Part shown: piece after piece, positions 3,358 through 12,875 of the stretch | How positions within the stretch are numbered: position 1 is the stretch's first letter | Layout: every line of letters begins with the position of its first letter | DNA from: a virus | Lineage: Duplodnaviria; Caudoviricetes | IMG/VR virus record: IMGVR_UViG_3300032290_001086 | Length of the DNA: 64,000 nt | Direction: 5' to 3' (one strand) | Translations under genes and position numbers: made by a program | Notes under the pieces: generated by a model | The model's input: the letters and a program-made list of their open reading frames with translations, nothing else | What the model was told of the DNA's origin: nothing | The model's database searches: none

Positions 3358-3793
3358 ACTCTTTGAAATTAAAGAAGGTAAGTTTAAAGTACTTCCAATA
3401 TTAAACCCTAAATATATCAAGGGATTCGTTGTTGTTTCTATCATCGCTATTATCATTGCTGGTCTTGCTGGACAATTCAAATTAGATGAGAAACAACTTT
3501 GGAAAATCTATACAGCACTAATTCAAAAATTAGGTCTGGAACAAAATCTTCCAGACATACCAGACCATCAAAAACAACTTGATGCTAAGGTAGAATTAGA
3601 AGTTGATAAAGCAATCTCAGATTATGAACGCTTGACAGGAGACTATGGGTATGTTAAGATACCAGCTCCACGGTACTCAGAAACCCCAGTTGACACTGAT
3701 GTGTGTTATACTGATGAGTGTCGAGCATTAGGAGGAGAAATCCGACTCTGTGCTCCATGGGTCCCAGACTGCCCCTTGACAAAGCAAGAATAG
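3344..3793 (+). CDS. Hypothetical membrane protein with C-terminal Cys cluster
   Basis: Hydrophobic segment GFVVVSIIAIIIAGLAG; CYTDEC...CAPWVPDC. Confidence 0.6.
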   Translation: MTMFKLFEIKEGKFKVLPILNPKYIKGFVVVSIIAIIIAGLAGQFKLDEKQLWKIYTALIQKLGLEQNLPDIPDHQKQLDAKVELEVDKAISDYERLTGDYGYVKIPAPRYSETPVDTDVCYTDECRALGGEIRLCAPWVPDCPLTKQE

Positions 3794-3804
3794 TCTGCTA
3801 TACT
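3776..3804 (+). promoter_or_regulatory. Sigma70-type promoter for the tRNA cluster
   Basis: TTGACA-17 bp-TATACT. Confidence 0.8.
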
Positions 3805-3816
3805 TAATACACAAAT

Positions 3817-3890
3817 GACTCAGTAGCTCAGTTGGATAGAGCATCTGCCTTCTAAGCAGTTGGTCGGGGGTTCAAGTCCCTCCTGAGTCG
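3817..3890 (+). tRNA. tRNA-Arg(TCT)
   Basis: Cloverleaf, loop CTTCTAA. Confidence 0.95.
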
Positions 3891-3920
3891 TGACAACTGA
3901 ATAAATTAAGGCATGAAACA

Positions 3921-4178
3921 ATGTACAAAATCAGATGCAAATGTTGCAATTCCAATCTTGAAGTAGCAACTCCAAACAGGGGACAATCTTGTAAATGTCC
4001 CAACGAAACTTACATAAGGCTTGACAACAACGGATTACCTGTTATAATAGCTCAAGACATGAGCCAAGTAGAAATGGTAACAGGATTTACTAAACCAAAA
4101 CAAAAGCAATCAAAAATGATGGAACAATTGAACACTCCAAAAAGACGAATAAGAAGACTAGATTACGAAGTTCGTTAA
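3921..4178 (+). CDS. Hypothetical Cys-rich protein
   Basis: CKCC...CKC motif. Confidence 0.65.
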   Translation: MYKIRCKCCNSNLEVATPNRGQSCKCPNETYIRLDNNGLPVIIAQDMSQVEMVTGFTKPKQKQSKMMEQLNTPKRRIRRLDYEVR

Positions 4179-4186
4179 TTTAGTCT

Positions 4187-4257
4187 GGGAGCATAGCTTA
4201 ATGGTAGAGCGGCCTGCTTATAACGGGTTGGTCTGGGTTCAATTCCCAGTGTTCCTA
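4187..4257 (+). tRNA. tRNA-Ile(TAT)
   Basis: Cloverleaf, loop CTTATAA, A73. Confidence 0.9.
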
Positions 4258-4280
4258 TTAGGAATCGACGGGTTCCTAAA

Positions 4281-4466
4281 GAATGTGGCAGAACAATCCT
4301 TGTGGTTACTCACGGGATAACGCAATAGATTAGAGGTGGTGCTCGCTGTATCGTTGAGAAATCAAAGGTATAGAACTTCCAACCAAGAAGAATCTAGGTA
4401 CTTGGAAATACGGTTGTCAGTGTAACCTTCCAGGTTGTGGGTATGACAGATTCCCACCATTCACCA
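4281..4466 (+). ncRNA. Unnamed multi-stem structured RNA ending in ACCA
   Basis: GAATG/CATTC closing stem, several internal helices, GAAA tetraloop, no ORF in the track. Confidence 0.55.
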
Positions 4467-4540
4467 CGGGATGTAGCTCAGTTTGGTAGAGCACTCGCTT
4501 TGGGAGCGAGGGGCCGTAGGTTCAAATCCTATCATCCCGA
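4467..4540 (+). tRNA. tRNA-Pro(TGG)
   Basis: CGGGATG acceptor, loop TTTGGGA. Confidence 0.95.
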
Positions 4541-4610
4541 TTACCGTTTACAGAACTTCCCTTCTGACGGTAAATACCACTAGTATATTATTCAACATAG
4601 ACCACAATCG

Positions 4611-4719
4611 CCGTTGGATAGTTTATTAGTTTGACGTTGAACTGCAAAGTCAGCATACGGATAGAGGTTAGGTCCCTGAATACTACTGGAAATATTCGGG
4701 GGTATTCACACCTAATCCA
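4611..4719 (+). ncRNA. Unnamed pseudoknotted RNA candidate
   Basis: CCGT/ACGG, TTGAC/GTCAG, TTAGGT/ACCTAA, CCCTGAATA/TATTCGGGG and TGGAT/ATCCA pairings. Confidence 0.45.
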
Positions 4720-4722
4720 TCT

Positions 4723-4796
4723 GGGGAATTAGCTCAGTTGGTAGTAGCACTTGCTTTGCAAGCAAGATGTCATCGGTTCGAGTCCGATATTCTCCA
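4723..4796 (+). tRNA. tRNA-Ala(TGC)
   Basis: Loop TTTGCAA; G3:U70 identity pair. Confidence 0.95.
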
Positions 4797-4815
4797 TTCC
4801 CTTTATATTATTACT

Positions 4816-5049
4816 ATGGGAGACTCGGTTAAGTATCAAATTGAAAAATCCAGAGAAGCACTTCGTTCTGCACTTGAACTAGGTGCAACACATGAAGATG
4901 TATGGACTCTTTCTCAGATTGCATCTGCATTGAGTACTGTTGAAGCACTACTTGCTTCACAATCACAGAAAAATTACACATTAAAAAATCCATATTACAA
5001 TGGATATGTAAGTAGTGGTATTTCTGATGATGTTATTACATTTAAATAA
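4816..5049 (+). CDS. Hypothetical protein
   Basis: MGDSVKYQ...; start moved downstream of tRNA-Ala. Confidence 0.65.
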   Translation: MGDSVKYQIEKSREALRSALELGATHEDVWTLSQIASALSTVEALLASQSQKNYTLKNPYYNGYVSSGISDDVITFK

Positions 5050-5103
5050 ATAACATCAATACTCCTCAAGCCTATCTATAGAAGCTCAAACAGAGGAGTC
5101 ACT

Positions 5104-5175
5104 GCGGAGTTAGTTCAGCGGTAGAACGCTATCCTTCCAAGTTAGATGTCGTCGGTTCGATTCCGATACTCCGCT
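5104..5175 (+). tRNA. tRNA-Gly(TCC)
   Basis: GCGGAGT/ACTCCGC acceptor, loop CTTCCAA, U73. Confidence 0.95.
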
Positions 5176-5196
5176 TCCCTCATATATGAGGTTATT

Positions 5197-5355
5197 ATGT
5201 CACTTATTTCTCAAACAGACCGTCAGATGGCTATTGAAGCTCTTGAATATTATGTTCAAAGGCTTAAAGATGATAACTGCACTCAAGCATCCATCAATGC
5301 ATTTCAAACACTTCTGAATTGGATTGAACTTGAACATTACAAACATGAACATTAA
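5197..5355 (+). CDS. Hypothetical protein
   Basis: MSLISQTDRQ...; GAGG SD before ATG 5197. Confidence 0.65.
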   Translation: MSLISQTDRQMAIEALEYYVQRLKDDNCTQASINAFQTLLNWIELEHYKHEH

Positions 5356-5521
5356 ACTTTGGTATTGTAAGCATATGAATCAGTGGAGGTGGACTCTAAC
5401 TGATGACTCTAGGCCAATTATTAAACAAGAATCTGGTCAACGTCCAAATCTTCGTGATGCAATGAATGATGTTGCAACTACTGTTGAATACTTATTAAAC
5501 ATTCATCCTGAAGAAATGTAA
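5345..5521 (+). CDS. Hypothetical cyanophage protein
   Basis: MNIKLWYCKHMNQWRWTL... Confidence 0.65.
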   Translation: MNIKLWYCKHMNQWRWTLTDDSRPIIKQESGQRPNLRDAMNDVATTVEYLLNIHPEEM

Positions 5522-5531
5522 TATTAATTAT

Positions 5532-5603
5532 CCTTGGGTAGTCTAGTGGCCAGGACACGCAGACAATGCAGTTGGAGTTTGGGTTCGATTCCCGACCTAA
5601 GGT
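5532..5603 (+). ncRNA. tRNA-like RNA with an unpaired, scrambled anticodon arm
   Basis: Acceptor CCTTGGG/CCTAAGG, D-arm GTC..GAC, T-arm TTGGG-TTCGATT-CCCGA; canonical length but no anticodon stem. Confidence 0.6.
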
Positions 5604-5861
5604 ACTAGTGGCACTGGAAAGATAAACCAGAATGCTGTAGTAAAGGGTGCAACAAGGAACGTTACATTAAACAAAGAATCCCCTCGGCCACATCGTAGAA
5701 AAAGCGAAACTGGCTTCATCATAAGTTGCTAAGTCGCTTAACGTAGGTGGACATTCTTGCCCTTAAAATCGTAGGTGCCAAAACCGCTCTTCATCCCTAG
5801 TATTCTGTGGGTGAGTGAAAGTAAAGAGTGATAACATAGGTAAAGTTATCTCCACCTACCA
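5604..5861 (+). ncRNA. Structured non-coding block (two or three folded domains)
   Basis: AAGGG/CCCTT, CCAC/GTGG, AAGCGA/TCGCTT, GTAGGTG/CACCTAC and GATAAC/GTTATC helices. Confidence 0.45.
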
Positions 5862-5864
5862 CAA

Positions 5865-5936
5865 TGGCGTGTAGCATAACGGTAATGCAAACGACTGTTA
5901 ATCGTAGGACTGTAGGTTCGATTCCTACCACGCCAG
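5865..5936 (+). tRNA. tRNA-Asn(GTT)
   Basis: Loop CTGTTAA, G73. Confidence 0.95.
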
Positions 5937-5970
5937 TTGCCGATAAATATGAGTATCGGTGAATACTAAA

Positions 5971-6237
5971 ATGAAATACAAAATTTCTTCAATGTACTGT
6001 TTTTATCAGGACGAAATTGTAGACATGTATTTCATCAATAATGTGCCATTTACATTTGAAGATATTCCTCAGATAATGCAGGATGACCCATATATTCAAA
6101 TGGAAGCGGCTAATAATCCTGAATATTCTCCAGAGGATTTATACAAAACATCTTTTTATCTAATAGATGAAGAATGTCACCCATGTCTATTTCCAGTAGA
6201 CTTGGAGAATCCTGAGGATATGCCACCAGTAGATTAG
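5971..6237 (+). CDS. Hypothetical cyanophage protein
   Basis: Acidic ORF MKYKISSMYCFY... Confidence 0.65.
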   Translation: MKYKISSMYCFYQDEIVDMYFINNVPFTFEDIPQIMQDDPYIQMEAANNPEYSPEDLYKTSFYLIDEECHPCLFPVDLENPEDMPPVD

Positions 6238-6238
6238 T

Positions 6239-6310
6239 GCCTCTTTAGCTCAGTGGTAGAGCACTCGCCTTGTAAGCGAGCGGTCATCAGTTCAAATCTG
6301 ATAGGGGGCT
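6239..6310 (+). tRNA. tRNA-Thr(TGT)
   Basis: Loop CTTGTAA. Confidence 0.95.
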
Positions 6311-6331
6311 TAAGTCTAACACTTAAAACTA

Positions 6332-6544
6332 ATGTATGAAAACCAAACAGAATTTGAATTGCATCTATTAGCATTCGGAAAAAGAGTAGAGTATATTCTT
6401 GCTGCAGAAATGGCAGGTAGAATGAATGCTAATGATGCGTATAAAGAAATCAAATTGCTATTTGAAAATCTTAAACAGTTTCGTAAATTAGAAAAGAAAC
6501 AAGACCACCCATTAGATTACGACCAAATTCCTGAACGATATTAA
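6332..6544 (+). CDS. Hypothetical protein
   Basis: 70 aa ORF in operon order. Confidence 0.65.
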   Translation: MYENQTEFELHLLAFGKRVEYILAAEMAGRMNANDAYKEIKLLFENLKQFRKLEKKQDHPLDYDQIPERY

Positions 6545-6546
6545 TC

Positions 6547-7128
6547 ATGACTATTTCACAAGGACTAGTTGACAAAGAACACGAAGAGGCTGGATTTGAA
6601 ATAATCCACCTCTCTTTTCGTAAGAGAGAATCATGCCATCTTTATGGCGGCCCAGTAAACTATTACGTTGGTAACATTGTATTTCGTCTTACAGATGAAG
6701 ATGCTATCAATCGTATGAAGTATTACATGCAAGAGAATGAAGACATTCGTGTAGCAACAGACCTAGAGTTGATGGAGAAGTATTACGAAGACCTTCACTT
6801 TGTATTTGGTGAATCAGAAGAACTTGATGAGGAACATGATGGTGAAAAATATACACCACTTGATATTCGTAACAAGAATGGTATCAAGGATGAAGATGTA
6901 TTCATTCGTGCCCATCGTCGCAACATGGCACCGCTCCATGGATTCGTTGAATACATTGAGAAATTCAATTGTTATCGAATGCACGAATACTTCCAGGACA
7001 CCCCAGTGGTTCATGGTATAATGCAGTATCTCCAAGACATGAAAGATGGTAAACCGAATCCTAGCCGCACTGTCTACCATGAGCAGTTCATCAACACCCT
7101 TGAAAACCTCTGCTGGTGGTGGGACTAG
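6547..7128 (+). CDS. Hypothetical protein
   Basis: 193 aa ORF coupled to the upstream stop. Confidence 0.65.
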   Translation: MTISQGLVDKEHEEAGFEIIHLSFRKRESCHLYGGPVNYYVGNIVFRLTDEDAINRMKYYMQENEDIRVATDLELMEKYYEDLHFVFGESEELDEEHDGEKYTPLDIRNKNGIKDEDVFIRAHRRNMAPLHGFVEYIEKFNCYRMHEYFQDTPVVHGIMQYLQDMKDGKPNPSRTVYHEQFINTLENLCWWWD

Positions 7129-7252
7129 ACAATGTGCCAAGTGCAAGACCAAACAACCCCTTGACAGCACCCACTACCAAGTGGTAAAATACTTTCGTTC
7201 TGGATTTTCGTATTATTGCAACGAATGTAATAAACCAAAACCTAGAGATTAA
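7079..7252 (+). CDS. Small zinc-finger protein resembling the N-terminal module of HNH/EndoVII endonucleases
   Basis: CAKC...YCNEC; start position uncertain. Confidence 0.45.
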   Translation: MSSSSTPLKTSAGGGTRQCAKCKTKQPLDSTHYQVVKYFRSGFSYYCNECNKPKPRD

Positions 7253-7280
7253 TAAATTCAATAAATATTGATATCACCCA

Positions 7281-7326
7281 AGTCTCGGAGTAGACTATAA
7301 ACTCTGCCCTGGTCGGGAGCAACCCC
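7281..7326 (+). ncRNA. Isolated manA-like pseudoknot module
   Basis: AGTC/GACT plus CGGAGT/ACTCTG H-type pseudoknot, then TGGTCGGG. Confidence 0.55.
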
Positions 7327-7337
7327 TTAAAATTCAA

Positions 7338-7535
7338 ATGGAACAAACAAACTATCGTTCTTTCAAGTTATCAAATGTTTGTGCTGAAATTGAAAGTGTG
7401 ATTACCACACTTAACCAAATTCAATCCCAAATGAATTTGAAAAATTATACTAAACTTCATGAAACGATTCAGAAACTTAAAGAACACAAACAGTATATTT
7501 GGCAAATATACAAAGATTTAGAAGTCTTGGAATGA
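7338..7535 (+). CDS. Hypothetical coiled-coil protein between pseudoknot modules
   Basis: 65 aa ORF. Confidence 0.55.
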   Translation: MEQTNYRSFKLSNVCAEIESVITTLNQIQSQMNLKNYTKLHETIQKLKEHKQYIWQIYKDLEVLE

Positions 7536-7678
7536 CTTAAAAAATACCCTGGTGGAGTCAATATGACCCAAATAGTCCTCGTCGGATTGGACATAAAATA
7601 TGCCGACTGGTGCGGATGTGGAGGATACTCCCGCCGAGTTTCCAATTTTCTCGTAATCAAAATTGGTGGCGAGCCTGC
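7522..7678 (+). ncRNA. manA-like RNA motif (three pseudoknot + UGGYG modules)
   Basis: Repeated pseudoknots each followed by TGGYG; resembles the cyanophage manA motif as recalled, not searched. Confidence 0.65.
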
Positions 7679-7687
7679 AAATGGGGG

Positions 7688-7716
7688 TTGACAATCTCCA
7701 ACAAATGCCCTATACT
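7688..7716 (+). promoter_or_regulatory. Sigma70-type promoter (late TATAAATA also at 7755-7762)
   Basis: TTGACA-17 bp-TATACT. Confidence 0.8.
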
Positions 7717-7788: not shown

Positions 7789-8667
7789 ATGATGATTCGT
7801 TCATTTCTAACTGCTGGTGTAGTTGCTGCTTCTATTGCAGCTCCTGCGATGGCACAAGTCACCAGTGTATCCCAACTGCGTGATGTACAGCCAACCGAAT
7901 GGTCATACCAGGCTATTTCAAACCTAGTATCTCGTTATGGTTGTGTTGCTGGTTTCCCAGATGGTACTTTCCGTCCTGGTGAACCTGCTACTCGTGCTCA
8001 ACTTGCGGCTCTTACAAATGCTTGTCTAGACCGTATTACTGAGTTCCAAACTGCTGCTGATGCACAACTAGCTGCTGCTCTACGTGCAGAGTTTGCAAAA
8101 GAACTAGGTGCAACTAATGCTCGTGTATCTGCACTAGAAGTTGCTGCTGCTCAGAAAGCACAGGGCGTAGGTAACTACGTTGGTCTTGGTGTTCTTCTGA
8201 ACAAGCAAGGTGTTGATGGTGGTGGTTATACTGAGAATCGTACTATTTCTGGTGCTACTCTTCAAGCACGTTATGCTGTGAAGAACTTCCGTAACCAGAA
8301 TGCAGTTTCAGTTCGTCCTTACCTAAATGCAGTTGCTGGTCCTAACAGCGACATCGGCACTGCTGGTGGTGCTCTAGTTTCTTATGACTGGTCTATTGCT
8401 CGCAAGGCTGGTGTAAGTGCTGCTAACATCTATGGTGGTGTTGGTTATCAAGTTCCTTTCTCTAACGATACACAGGCTAACTATCAGTCTGCTGTTGGTG
8501 AAAAAGGTCAAGTTGTTCTAGCTCTTGGTGTGGAAGGTCGTATTACTAACTCACTAGTGGGTTTTGCTGACCTAAAGTTCCCTACCACAAATGCTGGTAA
8601 TGCTTATGGTGGCAGTGATGCTGCTTACAGTCCTGTGTTTACTACTGGTCTGGGTTTCAAGTTCTGA
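7789..8667 (+). CDS. SLH-domain outer-membrane beta-barrel protein (Som/iron-uptake porin-like N-terminus)
   Basis: Signal peptide, VTSVSQLRDVQPTEWSYQAISNLVSRYGCVAGFPDGTFRP, C-terminal GLGFKF beta-signal. Confidence 0.85.
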   Translation: MMIRSFLTAGVVAASIAAPAMAQVTSVSQLRDVQPTEWSYQAISNLVSRYGCVAGFPDGTFRPGEPATRAQLAALTNACLDRITEFQTAADAQLAAALRAEFAKELGATNARVSALEVAAAQKAQGVGNYVGLGVLLNKQGVDGGGYTENRTISGATLQARYAVKNFRNQNAVSVRPYLNAVAGPNSDIGTAGGALVSYDWSIARKAGVSAANIYGGVGYQVPFSNDTQANYQSAVGEKGQVVLALGVEGRITNSLVGFADLKFPTTNAGNAYGGSDAAYSPVFTTGLGFKF

Positions 8668-11073: not shown

Positions 11074-12875
11074 ATGACTGCTACCATCGCTCAACGCAAT
11101 GGAAGTAATACATGGGAACAGTTCTGTGAGTGGGTAACATCTACCAACAACCGTCTGTATGTCGGTTGGTTTGGAACTCTTATGATTCCTACCCTTCTCG
11201 CTGCTACTATCTGTTTCATCGTTGCTTTCATTGCTGCTCCTCCCGTAGACATACTGCTTTAATCTGTGTCCTTCATCCGTAAGGATGATGTTAAAACTGG
11301 GTGAATTGCTGGAAACCGAAAGGCAATCAGCAGCCAAGTCCAAAGTACACTTTGGAAAGGTTCAGAGACTACCTGAGGGGTTTAGTCCCCTTAATAACAG
11401 GCTAGAGTGCCCAGCCCCTTTAATCTAATTAAAGGGTGAAGATATAGTCCAAATCTCACAGTTGACTTTTATTCGCACTTGTTGTATAAATATAACAGTA
11501 GGTGCGAAAACAAAATGCTCGATTTAACGGAATCACAAATTACTTGGATTGCGGGAATTTTAGAAGGTGAAGGATACTTTGGAATAGATAATCGTTCTAA
11601 AGACCGTTATGACTCTTCTAAAGCACCACCAGCACCATATATTCGTCTTGTTATGACTGATGAAGATGTGGTTGCTAAACTAAGTAATTTTGTAGACAAA
11701 CCCTATTTTGTACCCAATAGAAAAACACTCAAAGGAAAACCAGTCTATGTCCTTCATATAGGAAATAGAGAAAAAGTTCTTTTCATTTTGGAAAAAATAC
11801 TTCCCCATATGGGAAATAGAAGAAGTGAAAGAATTAAAGAATGTATTTCTTATATTAATGAGTGGAAAGAGTGGGTAGAAAATGGTGGGAGAGTAGAAAA
11901 CGCAAAACGAGCAAATCAAATAGGTCAACTGAAACGGTCTAAGTCGCAAGATATGACTGTTTTACTGGGATAAGAGACGGGATTCGTGAACCAGTTGCTG
12001 GTTCTCTAATGTACGGAAACAACATCATTTCTGGTGCTGTTGTTCCTTCTAGCAATGCTATCGGTCTGCACTTCTATCCCATCTGGGAAGCCAACTCGCT
12101 TGACGAATGGCTATATAATGGTGGACCATTCCAATTGGTCGTATTCCACTTTCTAATTGGTATCTATGCCTACATGGGTCGTGAATGGGAACTTTCTTAC
12201 CGTCTTGGTATGCGTCCCTGGATTTGCGTTGCTTACTCTGCTCCTGTTGCTGCTGCTTCTGCGGTCTTCCTTGTATATCCTTTCGGTCAAGGTTCCTTCT
12301 CTGATGCAATGCCTCTTGGAATCTCAGGAACGTTTAACTACATGCTCGTCTTCCAAGCAGAACACAACATTCTTATGCATCCGTTCCATATGCTTGGGGT
12401 TGCTGGGGTATTTGGTGGCTCTCTCTTTAGTGCTATGCACGGAAGTCTGGTTACGAGTAGCCTTGTTCGTGAAACCACAGAAGTAGAATCTCAGAACTAC
12501 GGCTACAAGTTCGGTCAAGAAGAAGAGACTTATAACATCGTTGCTGCTCACGGTTATTTTGGTCGCCTTATTTTCCAATATGCTTCCTTTAATAACTCAC
12601 GTTCGCTGCACTTCTTCCTTGCTGCTTGGCCTGTAGTTGGTATCTGGTTTACTGCTCTTGGTGTTAGCACCATGGCATTCAACCTCAATGGTTTCAACTT
12701 TAACCAGTCGATTACCGATAGTCAGAATCGTGTCATCCCCACCTGGGCAGACATTCTGAATCGTGGTGGTCTTGGAATGGAAGTGATGCATGAGCGAAAC
12801 GCTCACAACTTCCCCCTCGACCTGGCTGCTGCTGAGATGACTCCTGTTGCTCTTACTGCACCAGCCATCGGCTGA
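11074..12875 (+). CDS. psbA: Photosystem II D1 protein, spliced: exon 1 11074-11252, exon 2 11975-12875 (359 aa)
   Basis: Joining GAC AT|A GAC GGG restores PPVDIDGIREP; 179+901 = 1080 nt. Confidence 0.97.
11253..11974 (+). mobile_element. Group I intron in psbA (after nt 179)
   Basis: P1 GACAU/GUGUC with U-G at the splice site; P AATTGCTGGAAA, Q AATCAGCAGC, R GTTCAGAGACTA, S AAGATATAGTCC; terminal G at 11974. Confidence 0.95.
11515..11973 (+). CDS. Intron-encoded single-motif LAGLIDADG homing endonuclease
   Basis: [12 protein letters not shown] motif; ATG at 11515; stop immediately before the terminal G. Confidence 0.85.

Follow-up and report, generated by a model that had tools for sequence, protein, structure and literature searches.

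Positions 3,817 to 7,678 of a 64,000-nucleotide (nt) stretch of viral DNA (IMG/VR record IMGVR_UViG_3300032290_001086; the whole stretch is called the window in the following) carry an array of transfer RNA (tRNA) genes that alternate with small structured RNA modules, and this stretch is probably an early-transcribed cyanophage tRNA array that also produces free-standing structured RNAs. The best match to this 3.9-kb region is Synechococcus phage S-CREM1, with approximately 80% identity in patches, followed by the lake phage DSL-LC03, both of which are T4-like cyanophages of the family Kyanoviridae, and judged from these matches the source of the window is a T4-like cyanophage near S-CREM1. 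Seven plus-strand tRNA genes were identified by ARAGORN and Rfam between 3816 and 6310. Three of the seven RNA modules found with them belong to catalogued families (manA, wcaG, and abiF), and the comparisons described below argue for at least three well-supported new RNA families, of which motif X is the strongest. The tRNAs, the RNA modules, and the promoter-like sites of the array are:

3776-3804, + strand: sigma-70-like promoter site TTGACA-17-TATACT, just 5' of tRNA-Arg
3816-3891, + strand: tRNA-Arg(TCT), 68.7 bits
4021-4048, + strand: promoter-like site inside the coding sequence of an open reading frame (ORF) of 85 amino acids (aa)
4186-4258, + strand: tRNA-Ile(TAT)
4258-4466, + strand: manA RNA (Rfam RF01745), flush between tRNA-Ile and tRNA-Pro
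4467-4540, + strand: tRNA-Pro(TGG)
4541-4573, + strand: conserved hairpin, flush with the 3' end of tRNA-Pro (minimum free energy fold)
4579-4630, + strand: variable hairpin
4631-4722, + strand: conserved core with motif Y (from alignment)
4722-4797, + strand: tRNA-Ala(TGC)
5062-5103, + strand: abiF-type hairpin (RF03085-like; hairpin 5062-5099) with the linker UCACU, abutting tRNA-Gly
5104-5175, + strand: tRNA-Gly(TCC)
5532-5603, + strand: tRNA-like RNA (35.3 bits against 29 for the Rfam tRNA model)
5604-5644, + strand: hairpin of 41 nt that separates the tRNA-like RNA from motif X
5645-5762, + strand: motif X (three-way junction; single copy in the window)
5763-5864, + strand: module W, a three-way junction
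5865-5936, + strand: tRNA-Asn(GTT)
6239-6310, + strand: tRNA-Thr(TGT)
7573-7680, + strand: wcaG RNA (Rfam RF01761)

The modules begin 0-2 nt after the 3' end of a tRNA or of the tRNA-like RNA and the last helix of a module ends 4-5 nt before the next tRNA, a geometry that recurs in dozens of contigs with differing flanking tRNAs; in the window the linkers from the last helix to the first base of the tRNA read ACCA, CAUCU, UCACU, and CACAA. The promoter-like site at 3776 agrees with the consensus at 11 of 12 positions and has a counterpart at the equal position in four related loci (L004, L020, L002, and L189), and the site at 4021, a 12/12 match, is kept in six relatives within its coding sequence. 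Terminator-like sites on the plus strand were found neither within manA nor within the second and third of the spacers described below, and this, together with the conserved promoter-like sites upstream, fits co-transcription of the array, just as the G-U pairs in the module helices fit transcription of the tRNA strand. We infer that the spacing of the modules corresponds to the shortest leader accepted by ribonuclease (RNase) P and that RNase P and RNase Z set them free. Host RNA polymerase would transcribe tRNAs, RNA modules, and small ORFs jointly from sigma-70-like promoters, RNase P would cut at the 5' end of each tRNA, and the 3' tRNA-processing enzyme, which should be RNase Z for genes lacking an encoded CCA, would cut behind each discriminator base. 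Through these cuts each module would become a discrete RNA with a tight fold, which would accumulate and act in trans, and the modules presumably form a mixed toolkit rather than one machine, comprising the self-assembling manA, an orphan abiF-type hairpin, a tRNA look-alike, and the motifs X, Y, and W. The original prediction for this region, which was made by a model from the letters, had proposed that processing by RNase P and RNase Z releases stable RNAs, and the anatomy with its flush starts, 4-5-nt linkers, and promoter-like sites agrees well with such a release.

Motif X is composed of a stem P1 (GGG/CCC), a P2 hairpin with an AAGGAAC loop, the helices P3 and P4, and two AUCGUAG strands around a variable apical hairpin. 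A 19-base pattern derived from it was found in 89 viral contigs, each with the whole element, and the 50 unique sequences range from 80 to 123 nt, with the length varying only in the apical hairpin. Evaluation by RNAalifold and pair counting revealed 23 pairs with 99.4% of the cells paired and 9 compensatory pairs, and the covariation of 0.312 compares with 0.161 in shuffled alignments (0/500) and with at most 0.123 if the pairing partners are slid. Moreover, the sequence is invariant across 49 variants in the loop AAGGAAC, in the UUAAA junction, and in both AUCGUAG strands, all of which are unpaired. Of 65 distinct contexts, 38 have a tRNA at most 10 nt downstream of motif X, 23 of these 38 with a spacer of 5 nt, and the tRNAs that follow belong to seven species; in 20 of the 65, a tRNA or tRNA-like RNA is placed 1-7 nt 5' of motif X. 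It has no match in Rfam at E values up to 1, and the only isolates containing it at blastn sensitivity are S-CREM1 and DSL-LC03. Six matches were obtained in cellular genomes, of which four are chance matches and two lie on phage-like contigs in bins of metagenome-assembled genomes (MAGs). These two contigs, L092 (CAYVOK010000038.1) and L097 (CALGUV010000127.1), are filed in Acidimicrobiaceae and Microbacteriaceae bins and look like misplaced cyanophage contigs, and L092 also holds a manA that is nearly identical to the copy of S-CREM1. Comparison of motif X with a permuted abiF motif by eye gave one short common string (AACGxUGC..AAAC), and no claim of kinship is made.

Another well-supported element is the tRNA-like RNA, in which a 7-base-pair (bp) acceptor stem, a D arm, and a T arm occur together with a 3-bp stem and a GACAA pentaloop in place of the anticodon arm. 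The three arms other than this mini-stem are present in all 16 variants. Covariation is seen in the acceptor and T stems, and according to RNAalifold 9 of 18 pairs show compensatory changes, among them all three pairs of the mini-stem (GCA/UGC, GUG/CAC, and CCC/GGG), whose GACAA pentaloop is invariant. The 5-bp anticodon stem and the 7-nt loop of a tRNA are missing, and the RNA is unable to decode; ARAGORN assigns four identities to its variants (tRNA-His, Leu, Cys, or Val). An anticodon-less tRNA mimic had been suspected in this island, and it turns out to be a conserved family with covarying arms; this RNA may in addition provide a handle for processing.

The spacer between tRNA-Pro and tRNA-Ala, the second of three blocks that had been described as folded and free of ORFs, is a composite of a conserved hairpin, which is present in all relatives having the spacer, a variable hairpin, which is missing or replaced in relatives, and a conserved core ending in motif Y. 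In order, motif Y consists of GAUAGAG, the 5' strand of a 7-bp stem, UCCCUG, an optional hairpin, UCACA, the 3' strand of the stem, and the linker CAUCU, with the stem formed by 4666-4672 and 4711-4717. This stem is 100% paired across 18 variants with compensatory changes in 4 pairs, and its covariation amounts to 0.431 vs. 0.178 in shuffles (0/500). In other lineages motif Y stands before motif X or the abiF-type hairpin instead of before a tRNA. A blastn search with this block gave no match. That the three blocks contain no genes holds, as only spurious ORFs of less than 50 aa lie inside them; as to folding, the first block is manA and the second folds better than shuffled sequences (z = -4.8), whereas the third does not do so as a whole (z = -0.43) and is structured in its parts, as shown by the covariation of motif X and a conserved 3' domain.

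The manA RNA was recognized at 4258-4467 with 107.7 bits vs. a cut-off of 55.2 over positions 1-192 of the 192 positions of the model, including the junction and the pseudoknot, the 3' strand of which (4458-4462) is followed by the 4-nt linker ACCA. The RNA starts 0-1 nt after tRNA-Ile and ends 0 nt before tRNA-Pro, and the position in a 5' untranslated region (5'-UTR) that would go with membership in this family is replaced by tRNAs on either side, with no ORF downstream. The manA of S-CREM1 is likewise flush between tRNAs, but these are tRNA-Leu and tRNA-Asn instead of tRNA-Ile and tRNA-Pro. In three relatives (L028, L047, and L004) tRNA-Ile and tRNA-Pro are 2 nt apart without manA, which marks manA as an optional cassette at this junction. 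Compared to classic manA (RF01745; Weinberg et al., 2010, PMC2864571), the window copy has the same full model with junction and pseudoknot; however, classic copies have their own promoter and stand upstream of protein genes. A blastn search of manA against the phage collection at a word size of 11 gave no match, and a DNA pattern for manA in viral contigs returned mainly chance matches, the real ones being about a dozen close relatives. Two phage records were used as GenBank versions instead of RefSeq, and their coordinates may be shifted. In vitro, manA RNAs were reported to self-assemble from RNA only into 60-mer icosahedral cages or into 8-10-mers, a finding obtained with other manA variants (bioRxiv 10.64898/2026.07.01.735769).

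A common CCA end of the blocks had been pointed out. Literally, CCA does occur at 4464-4466, 4717-4719, and 5859-5861, that is 0, 2-3, and 3 nt ahead of the next tRNA, and throughout the array the true tRNAs lack an encoded CCA. A conserved terminus is absent: manA relatives end in CACUA or CACCU, and in the second and third blocks CCA is non-terminal and part of structural elements, in the second block of the invariant UCCAUCU. The interpretation of CCA as a tRNA-like 3' tag was rejected on these grounds. Following RNase P cleavage, manA alone would end in CCA. Of 220 distinct tRNAs in these loci, 14.5% have a CCA of this kind, vs. approximately 6.6% expected.

The module with a link to phage defense is the abiF-type hairpin, a two-tier hairpin that retains the conserved AAGCCU..UC.A...GCUCAAA..G. 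The copy of the window aligns over positions 1-37 of the 37 positions of the model with 31.5 bits, under the Rfam cut-off of 37, and the syntenic copy of S-CREM1 reaches 52.2 bits. In cyanophage loci 29 variants were collected, in which the outer stem covaries and which without exception end in GGGGG-UCACU, followed by a tRNA at 0 nt or by AAUUA and motif X. The abiF-motif RNA RCd22 of C. difficile binds and neutralizes the AbiF (Abi_2) toxin in cis as well as in trans (PMC12373285). The hairpin resembles abiF/RCd22 (RF03085) in the two-tier fold and the AAGCCU...GCUCAAA signature, and it differs in that no abiF gene adjoins it, in its occurrence as a single copy rather than two, in its setting in a phage tRNA array, and in its score under the cut-off. 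A gene for the Pfam Abi_2 toxin was not found among the ten ORFs of the island, and a search for Abi_2 in two MAGs returned nothing, a result that is uninformative for cyanobacteria. Most likely, the abiF-type hairpin would mimic the RNA antitoxin that holds AbiF (Abi_2) abortive-infection toxins inactive. As a lytic phage carries it without a partner toxin, this antitoxin-type RNA is an obvious candidate for a decoy and the one part of the decoy idea for which support was found. A phage RNA that disarms an abortive-infection toxin by mimicry of a type III antitoxin is known in pseudo-ToxI of phage PhiTE, a case with the ToxIN system, 36-nt repeats in tandem, and escape mutants. Here, by comparison, the putative counterpart is a single abiF-type hairpin carried by wild-type phages.

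The original prediction went further and suggested that the released RNAs act together, for example as a single coordinated decoy set directed against RNA-targeting abortive-infection or toxin-antitoxin systems, a reading that we consider unlikely. An RNA of antitoxin class with no toxin gene alongside and the co-occurrence of the modules in one island speak in its favor, and so do the protein antitoxins that S-CREM1 encodes in addition according to its genome description (PMC9964418). However, the defense link concerns just one of at least six modules, and this one was not listed in the prediction; manA has another reported property, the assembly of cages; and the argument from CCA fails. Features of a ToxI-like system were not seen either, since the modules are all different from each other, motif X is single-copy, tandem repeats as in type III antitoxins are lacking, and the ORFs contain no toxin family. 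The modules also come and go singly: they are gained, lost, and reshuffled independently between phages and their order differs by lineage, which argues against one obligate set.

The same junctions could be explained if the modules were cis-acting spacers, which assist tRNA maturation by insulation against misfolding or by setting the leader-trailer geometry for RNase P and RNase Z and which have no role after release. The fixed linker of 4-5 nt to the next tRNA, the flush 5' junctions, and the many different tRNAs that follow the modules would all be expected in this case. We nevertheless regard this explanation as quite improbable: many tRNAs of the same arrays are 2 nt apart without a module, the invariant unpaired strands of motif X (AAGGAAC, UUAAA, and twice AUCGUAG in 49 variants) would be needless for a spacer, modules are also found without intervening tRNAs, and manA and abiF have known roles elsewhere.

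It has also to be considered that each block between tRNAs is a single multi-domain RNA, in the case of the third block of approximately 260 nt with hairpin, motif X, and module W. The 41-nt hairpin is 88-100% conserved in 12 loci and occurs also in L046. Module W is closed by GUAGGUG (5771-5777) paired with CACCUAC (5853-5859) and is followed by the linker CACAA; it was found in 7 relatives with 24 pairs, 4 of them with compensatory change, and is confined to the close lineage. Within 5690-5780 there are three copies of AUCGUAG, two of which are complementary to the tail of W, CCACCUAC (5853-5860); this tail can pair with GUAGGUG in W over 7 bp or with GUAGGUGG in motif X over 8 bp, and alternative folds are possible. 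Such a composite RNA might switch pairings via CCACCUAC, and the contiguous arrays in other lineages as well as the repeats would suit it, but in most contigs motif X is present alone without W, and covariation says nothing on the alternative pairing, as the copies concerned are all invariant. The chance that a block works as one RNA is slim.

Downstream of the array, the region that had been called a pseudoknot array includes the Rfam family wcaG, which was matched with 51.1 bits vs. a cut-off of 42 over model positions 1-98 and contains two UGGUG, in agreement with the two required UGGYG elements. Three further elements lie around it:

approximately 7281-7335 and approximately 7537-7572, + strand: two conserved CCCUGGU(G/C)G units flanking a 65-aa ORF (7338-7535)
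7688-7716, + strand: promoter-like site TTGACA-17-TATACT, right after wcaG and before the gene of an SLH-domain protein at 7789

The CCCUGGU(G/C)G units are kept in relatives, and similar units are found ahead of wcaG in S-CREM1 and DSL-LC03, in which a promoter-like site lies in a comparable arrangement between wcaG and the next ORF. In three phages, a small hairpin with TTGACA in its loop comes right after wcaG and a -10 box follows 17-18 nt on (window 7681-7716; L001 approximately 2878-2915; L002 5518-5560), and DSL-LC03 has in addition a U7 tract. wcaG may end a transcription unit rather than sit in the 5'-UTR of the next gene. In DSL-LC03 (L002 5412-5580), the annotated start of the coding sequence for GDP-mannose 4,6-dehydratase overlaps wcaG, and the real start looks like the ATG at approximately 5578 behind the promoter-like site. 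The gene at 7789-8667 of the window encodes a protein of 292 aa whose N-terminus is signal-like and which contains an SLH domain (Pfam, 41.7 bits); this protein resembles a shortened cyanobacterial porin. That the modules are cis-regulatory elements or riboswitches for downstream genes, as suggested by the Rfam type Cis-reg of manA and wcaG, by their complex folds and conserved junctions, and by the position of wcaG upstream of the GDP-mannose dehydratase gene in DSL-LC03, is highly improbable, since a tRNA follows manA, motif X, motif Y, and abiF within 0-5 nt, which leaves neither space for an expression platform nor an ORF that could be controlled, and since in three phages a promoter-like site separates wcaG from the next gene.

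Several observations weigh against an array that delivers its RNAs by way of tRNA processing. The manA copies of the marine phages P-SSM2 and P-SSM4 follow a TATAAT box of their own without a tRNA neighbor, which rules out that manA is always flush with tRNAs and makes the flush layout lineage-specific. wcaG does not directly adjoin a tRNA and may obey a different logic, and the abiF-type copy of the window is scored less than the Rfam cut-off. The promoters are consensus matches, and the total number of promoter-like sites hardly exceeds that in shuffles (23 vs. 17.6). Furthermore, 11 of the 65 motif X contexts are without a tRNA in the DNA retrieved, and in locus L012 (11437-11920) motif Y, an abiF-type hairpin, and motif X are contiguous over approximately 480 nt with no tRNAs between them. 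Such tRNA-free arrays in other lineages imply that punctuation by tRNAs is one delivery route and no requirement. The array of L012 lies behind a TATAAT box and contains further conserved pieces, a CCCCCUCUCUUUUCGAUGGGG hairpin and GGCAGAUAGCCUAGAAGGAGAGCC; in the contiguous arrays of other lineages Rfam at relaxed threshold identified tRNAs only.

The remaining features of the region are mainly small ORFs:

3921-4178, + strand: 85-aa ORF, conserved in phages (phrog_8074)
4816-5049, + strand: 77-aa ORF without family match
5197-5355, + strand: 52-aa ORF, overlapping the following 65-aa ORF
5324-5521, + strand: 65-aa ORF (phrog_2818)
5971-6237, + strand: 88-aa ORF (phrog_4134)
6332-6544, + strand: ORF with DUF7219
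6547-7128, + strand: 193-aa ORF

Elsewhere in the window, a tRNA-Asn with the unusual anticodon ATT was called at 2470-2540 (Rfam tRNA, 50.5 bits) with a promoter-like site of its own upstream (2435-2463), and a group I intron lies at 11243-11472 (Rfam, 85.5 bits).

The tRNA cluster of phage T4 contains two non-tRNA stable RNAs, C and D (rnaC and rnaD), which are co-transcribed and processed together with the tRNAs. We know of no function for these two RNAs. Compared to the two of T4, six non-tRNA modules (manA, motif Y, the abiF-type hairpin, the tRNA-like RNA, motif X, and W) are present here, and wcaG lies downstream. The closest sequenced isolate, S-CREM1, has manA flush between two tRNAs and abiF abutting tRNA-Gly, as observed in the window. 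Its cluster of non-coding RNAs (wcaG, manA, and abiF; PMC9964418, Table 4) is situated in the corresponding tRNA region and is made up of the three Rfam families found here; the published account gives Rfam hits only, keeps the cis-regulatory reading, and does not mention the flush junctions, and neither the tRNA-like RNA nor motif X, both of which the S-CREM1 genome also carries, is noted there. The cage-forming RNAs GOLLD and ROOL are described as "often near tRNA islands," and the linker of GOLLD can carry tRNAs (PMC12286853). Like the RNAs described here they are phage-borne structured RNAs near tRNAs, and they form RNA-only cages as manA does; however, GOLLD and ROOL are single RNAs of 500-800 nt, whereas the array described here alternates tRNAs with several small modules that are unrelated to each other, and the Rfam models of GOLLD and ROOL have no match in the window or in seven related loci. 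A published account of the flush layout, of motif X, of motif Y, or of the GACAA tRNA-like RNA was not found, and the core strings of motif X and of the tRNA-like RNA did not occur in a literature search. Thousands of unnamed IMG/VR structures were predicted by Fremin et al. (2023; PMC10690425), and these may include motif X or the tRNA-like RNA.

For the biology of cyanophages, the arrangement places manA, wcaG, and abiF, which are catalogued as gene leaders or as toxin partners, where they would be expected as free RNAs only, and the association with phage tRNA islands, as described for the cage-forming GOLLD and ROOL, now extends to manA, which is the third natural RNA with reported cage formation. 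For annotation it means that a non-decoding tRNA look-alike is misread by ARAGORN as ordinary tRNA species. The relative S-CREM1 is available in culture and a model host exists for it, which makes a direct test feasible. It is a doubtful generalization at present that cyanophage tRNA arrays are a general production line for RNA-only devices, in which the enzymes of tRNA processing would turn out many copies of manA cage subunits, abiF antitoxin mimics, and platform-less aptamer-like RNAs. If it were true, RNAs of the latter kind such as motif X would titrate, like sponges, host proteins or small immune-signaling molecules, motif X would gain a defined counter-defense partner, and the orphan riboswitch candidates manA and wcaG would be reclassified as trans-acting RNAs.

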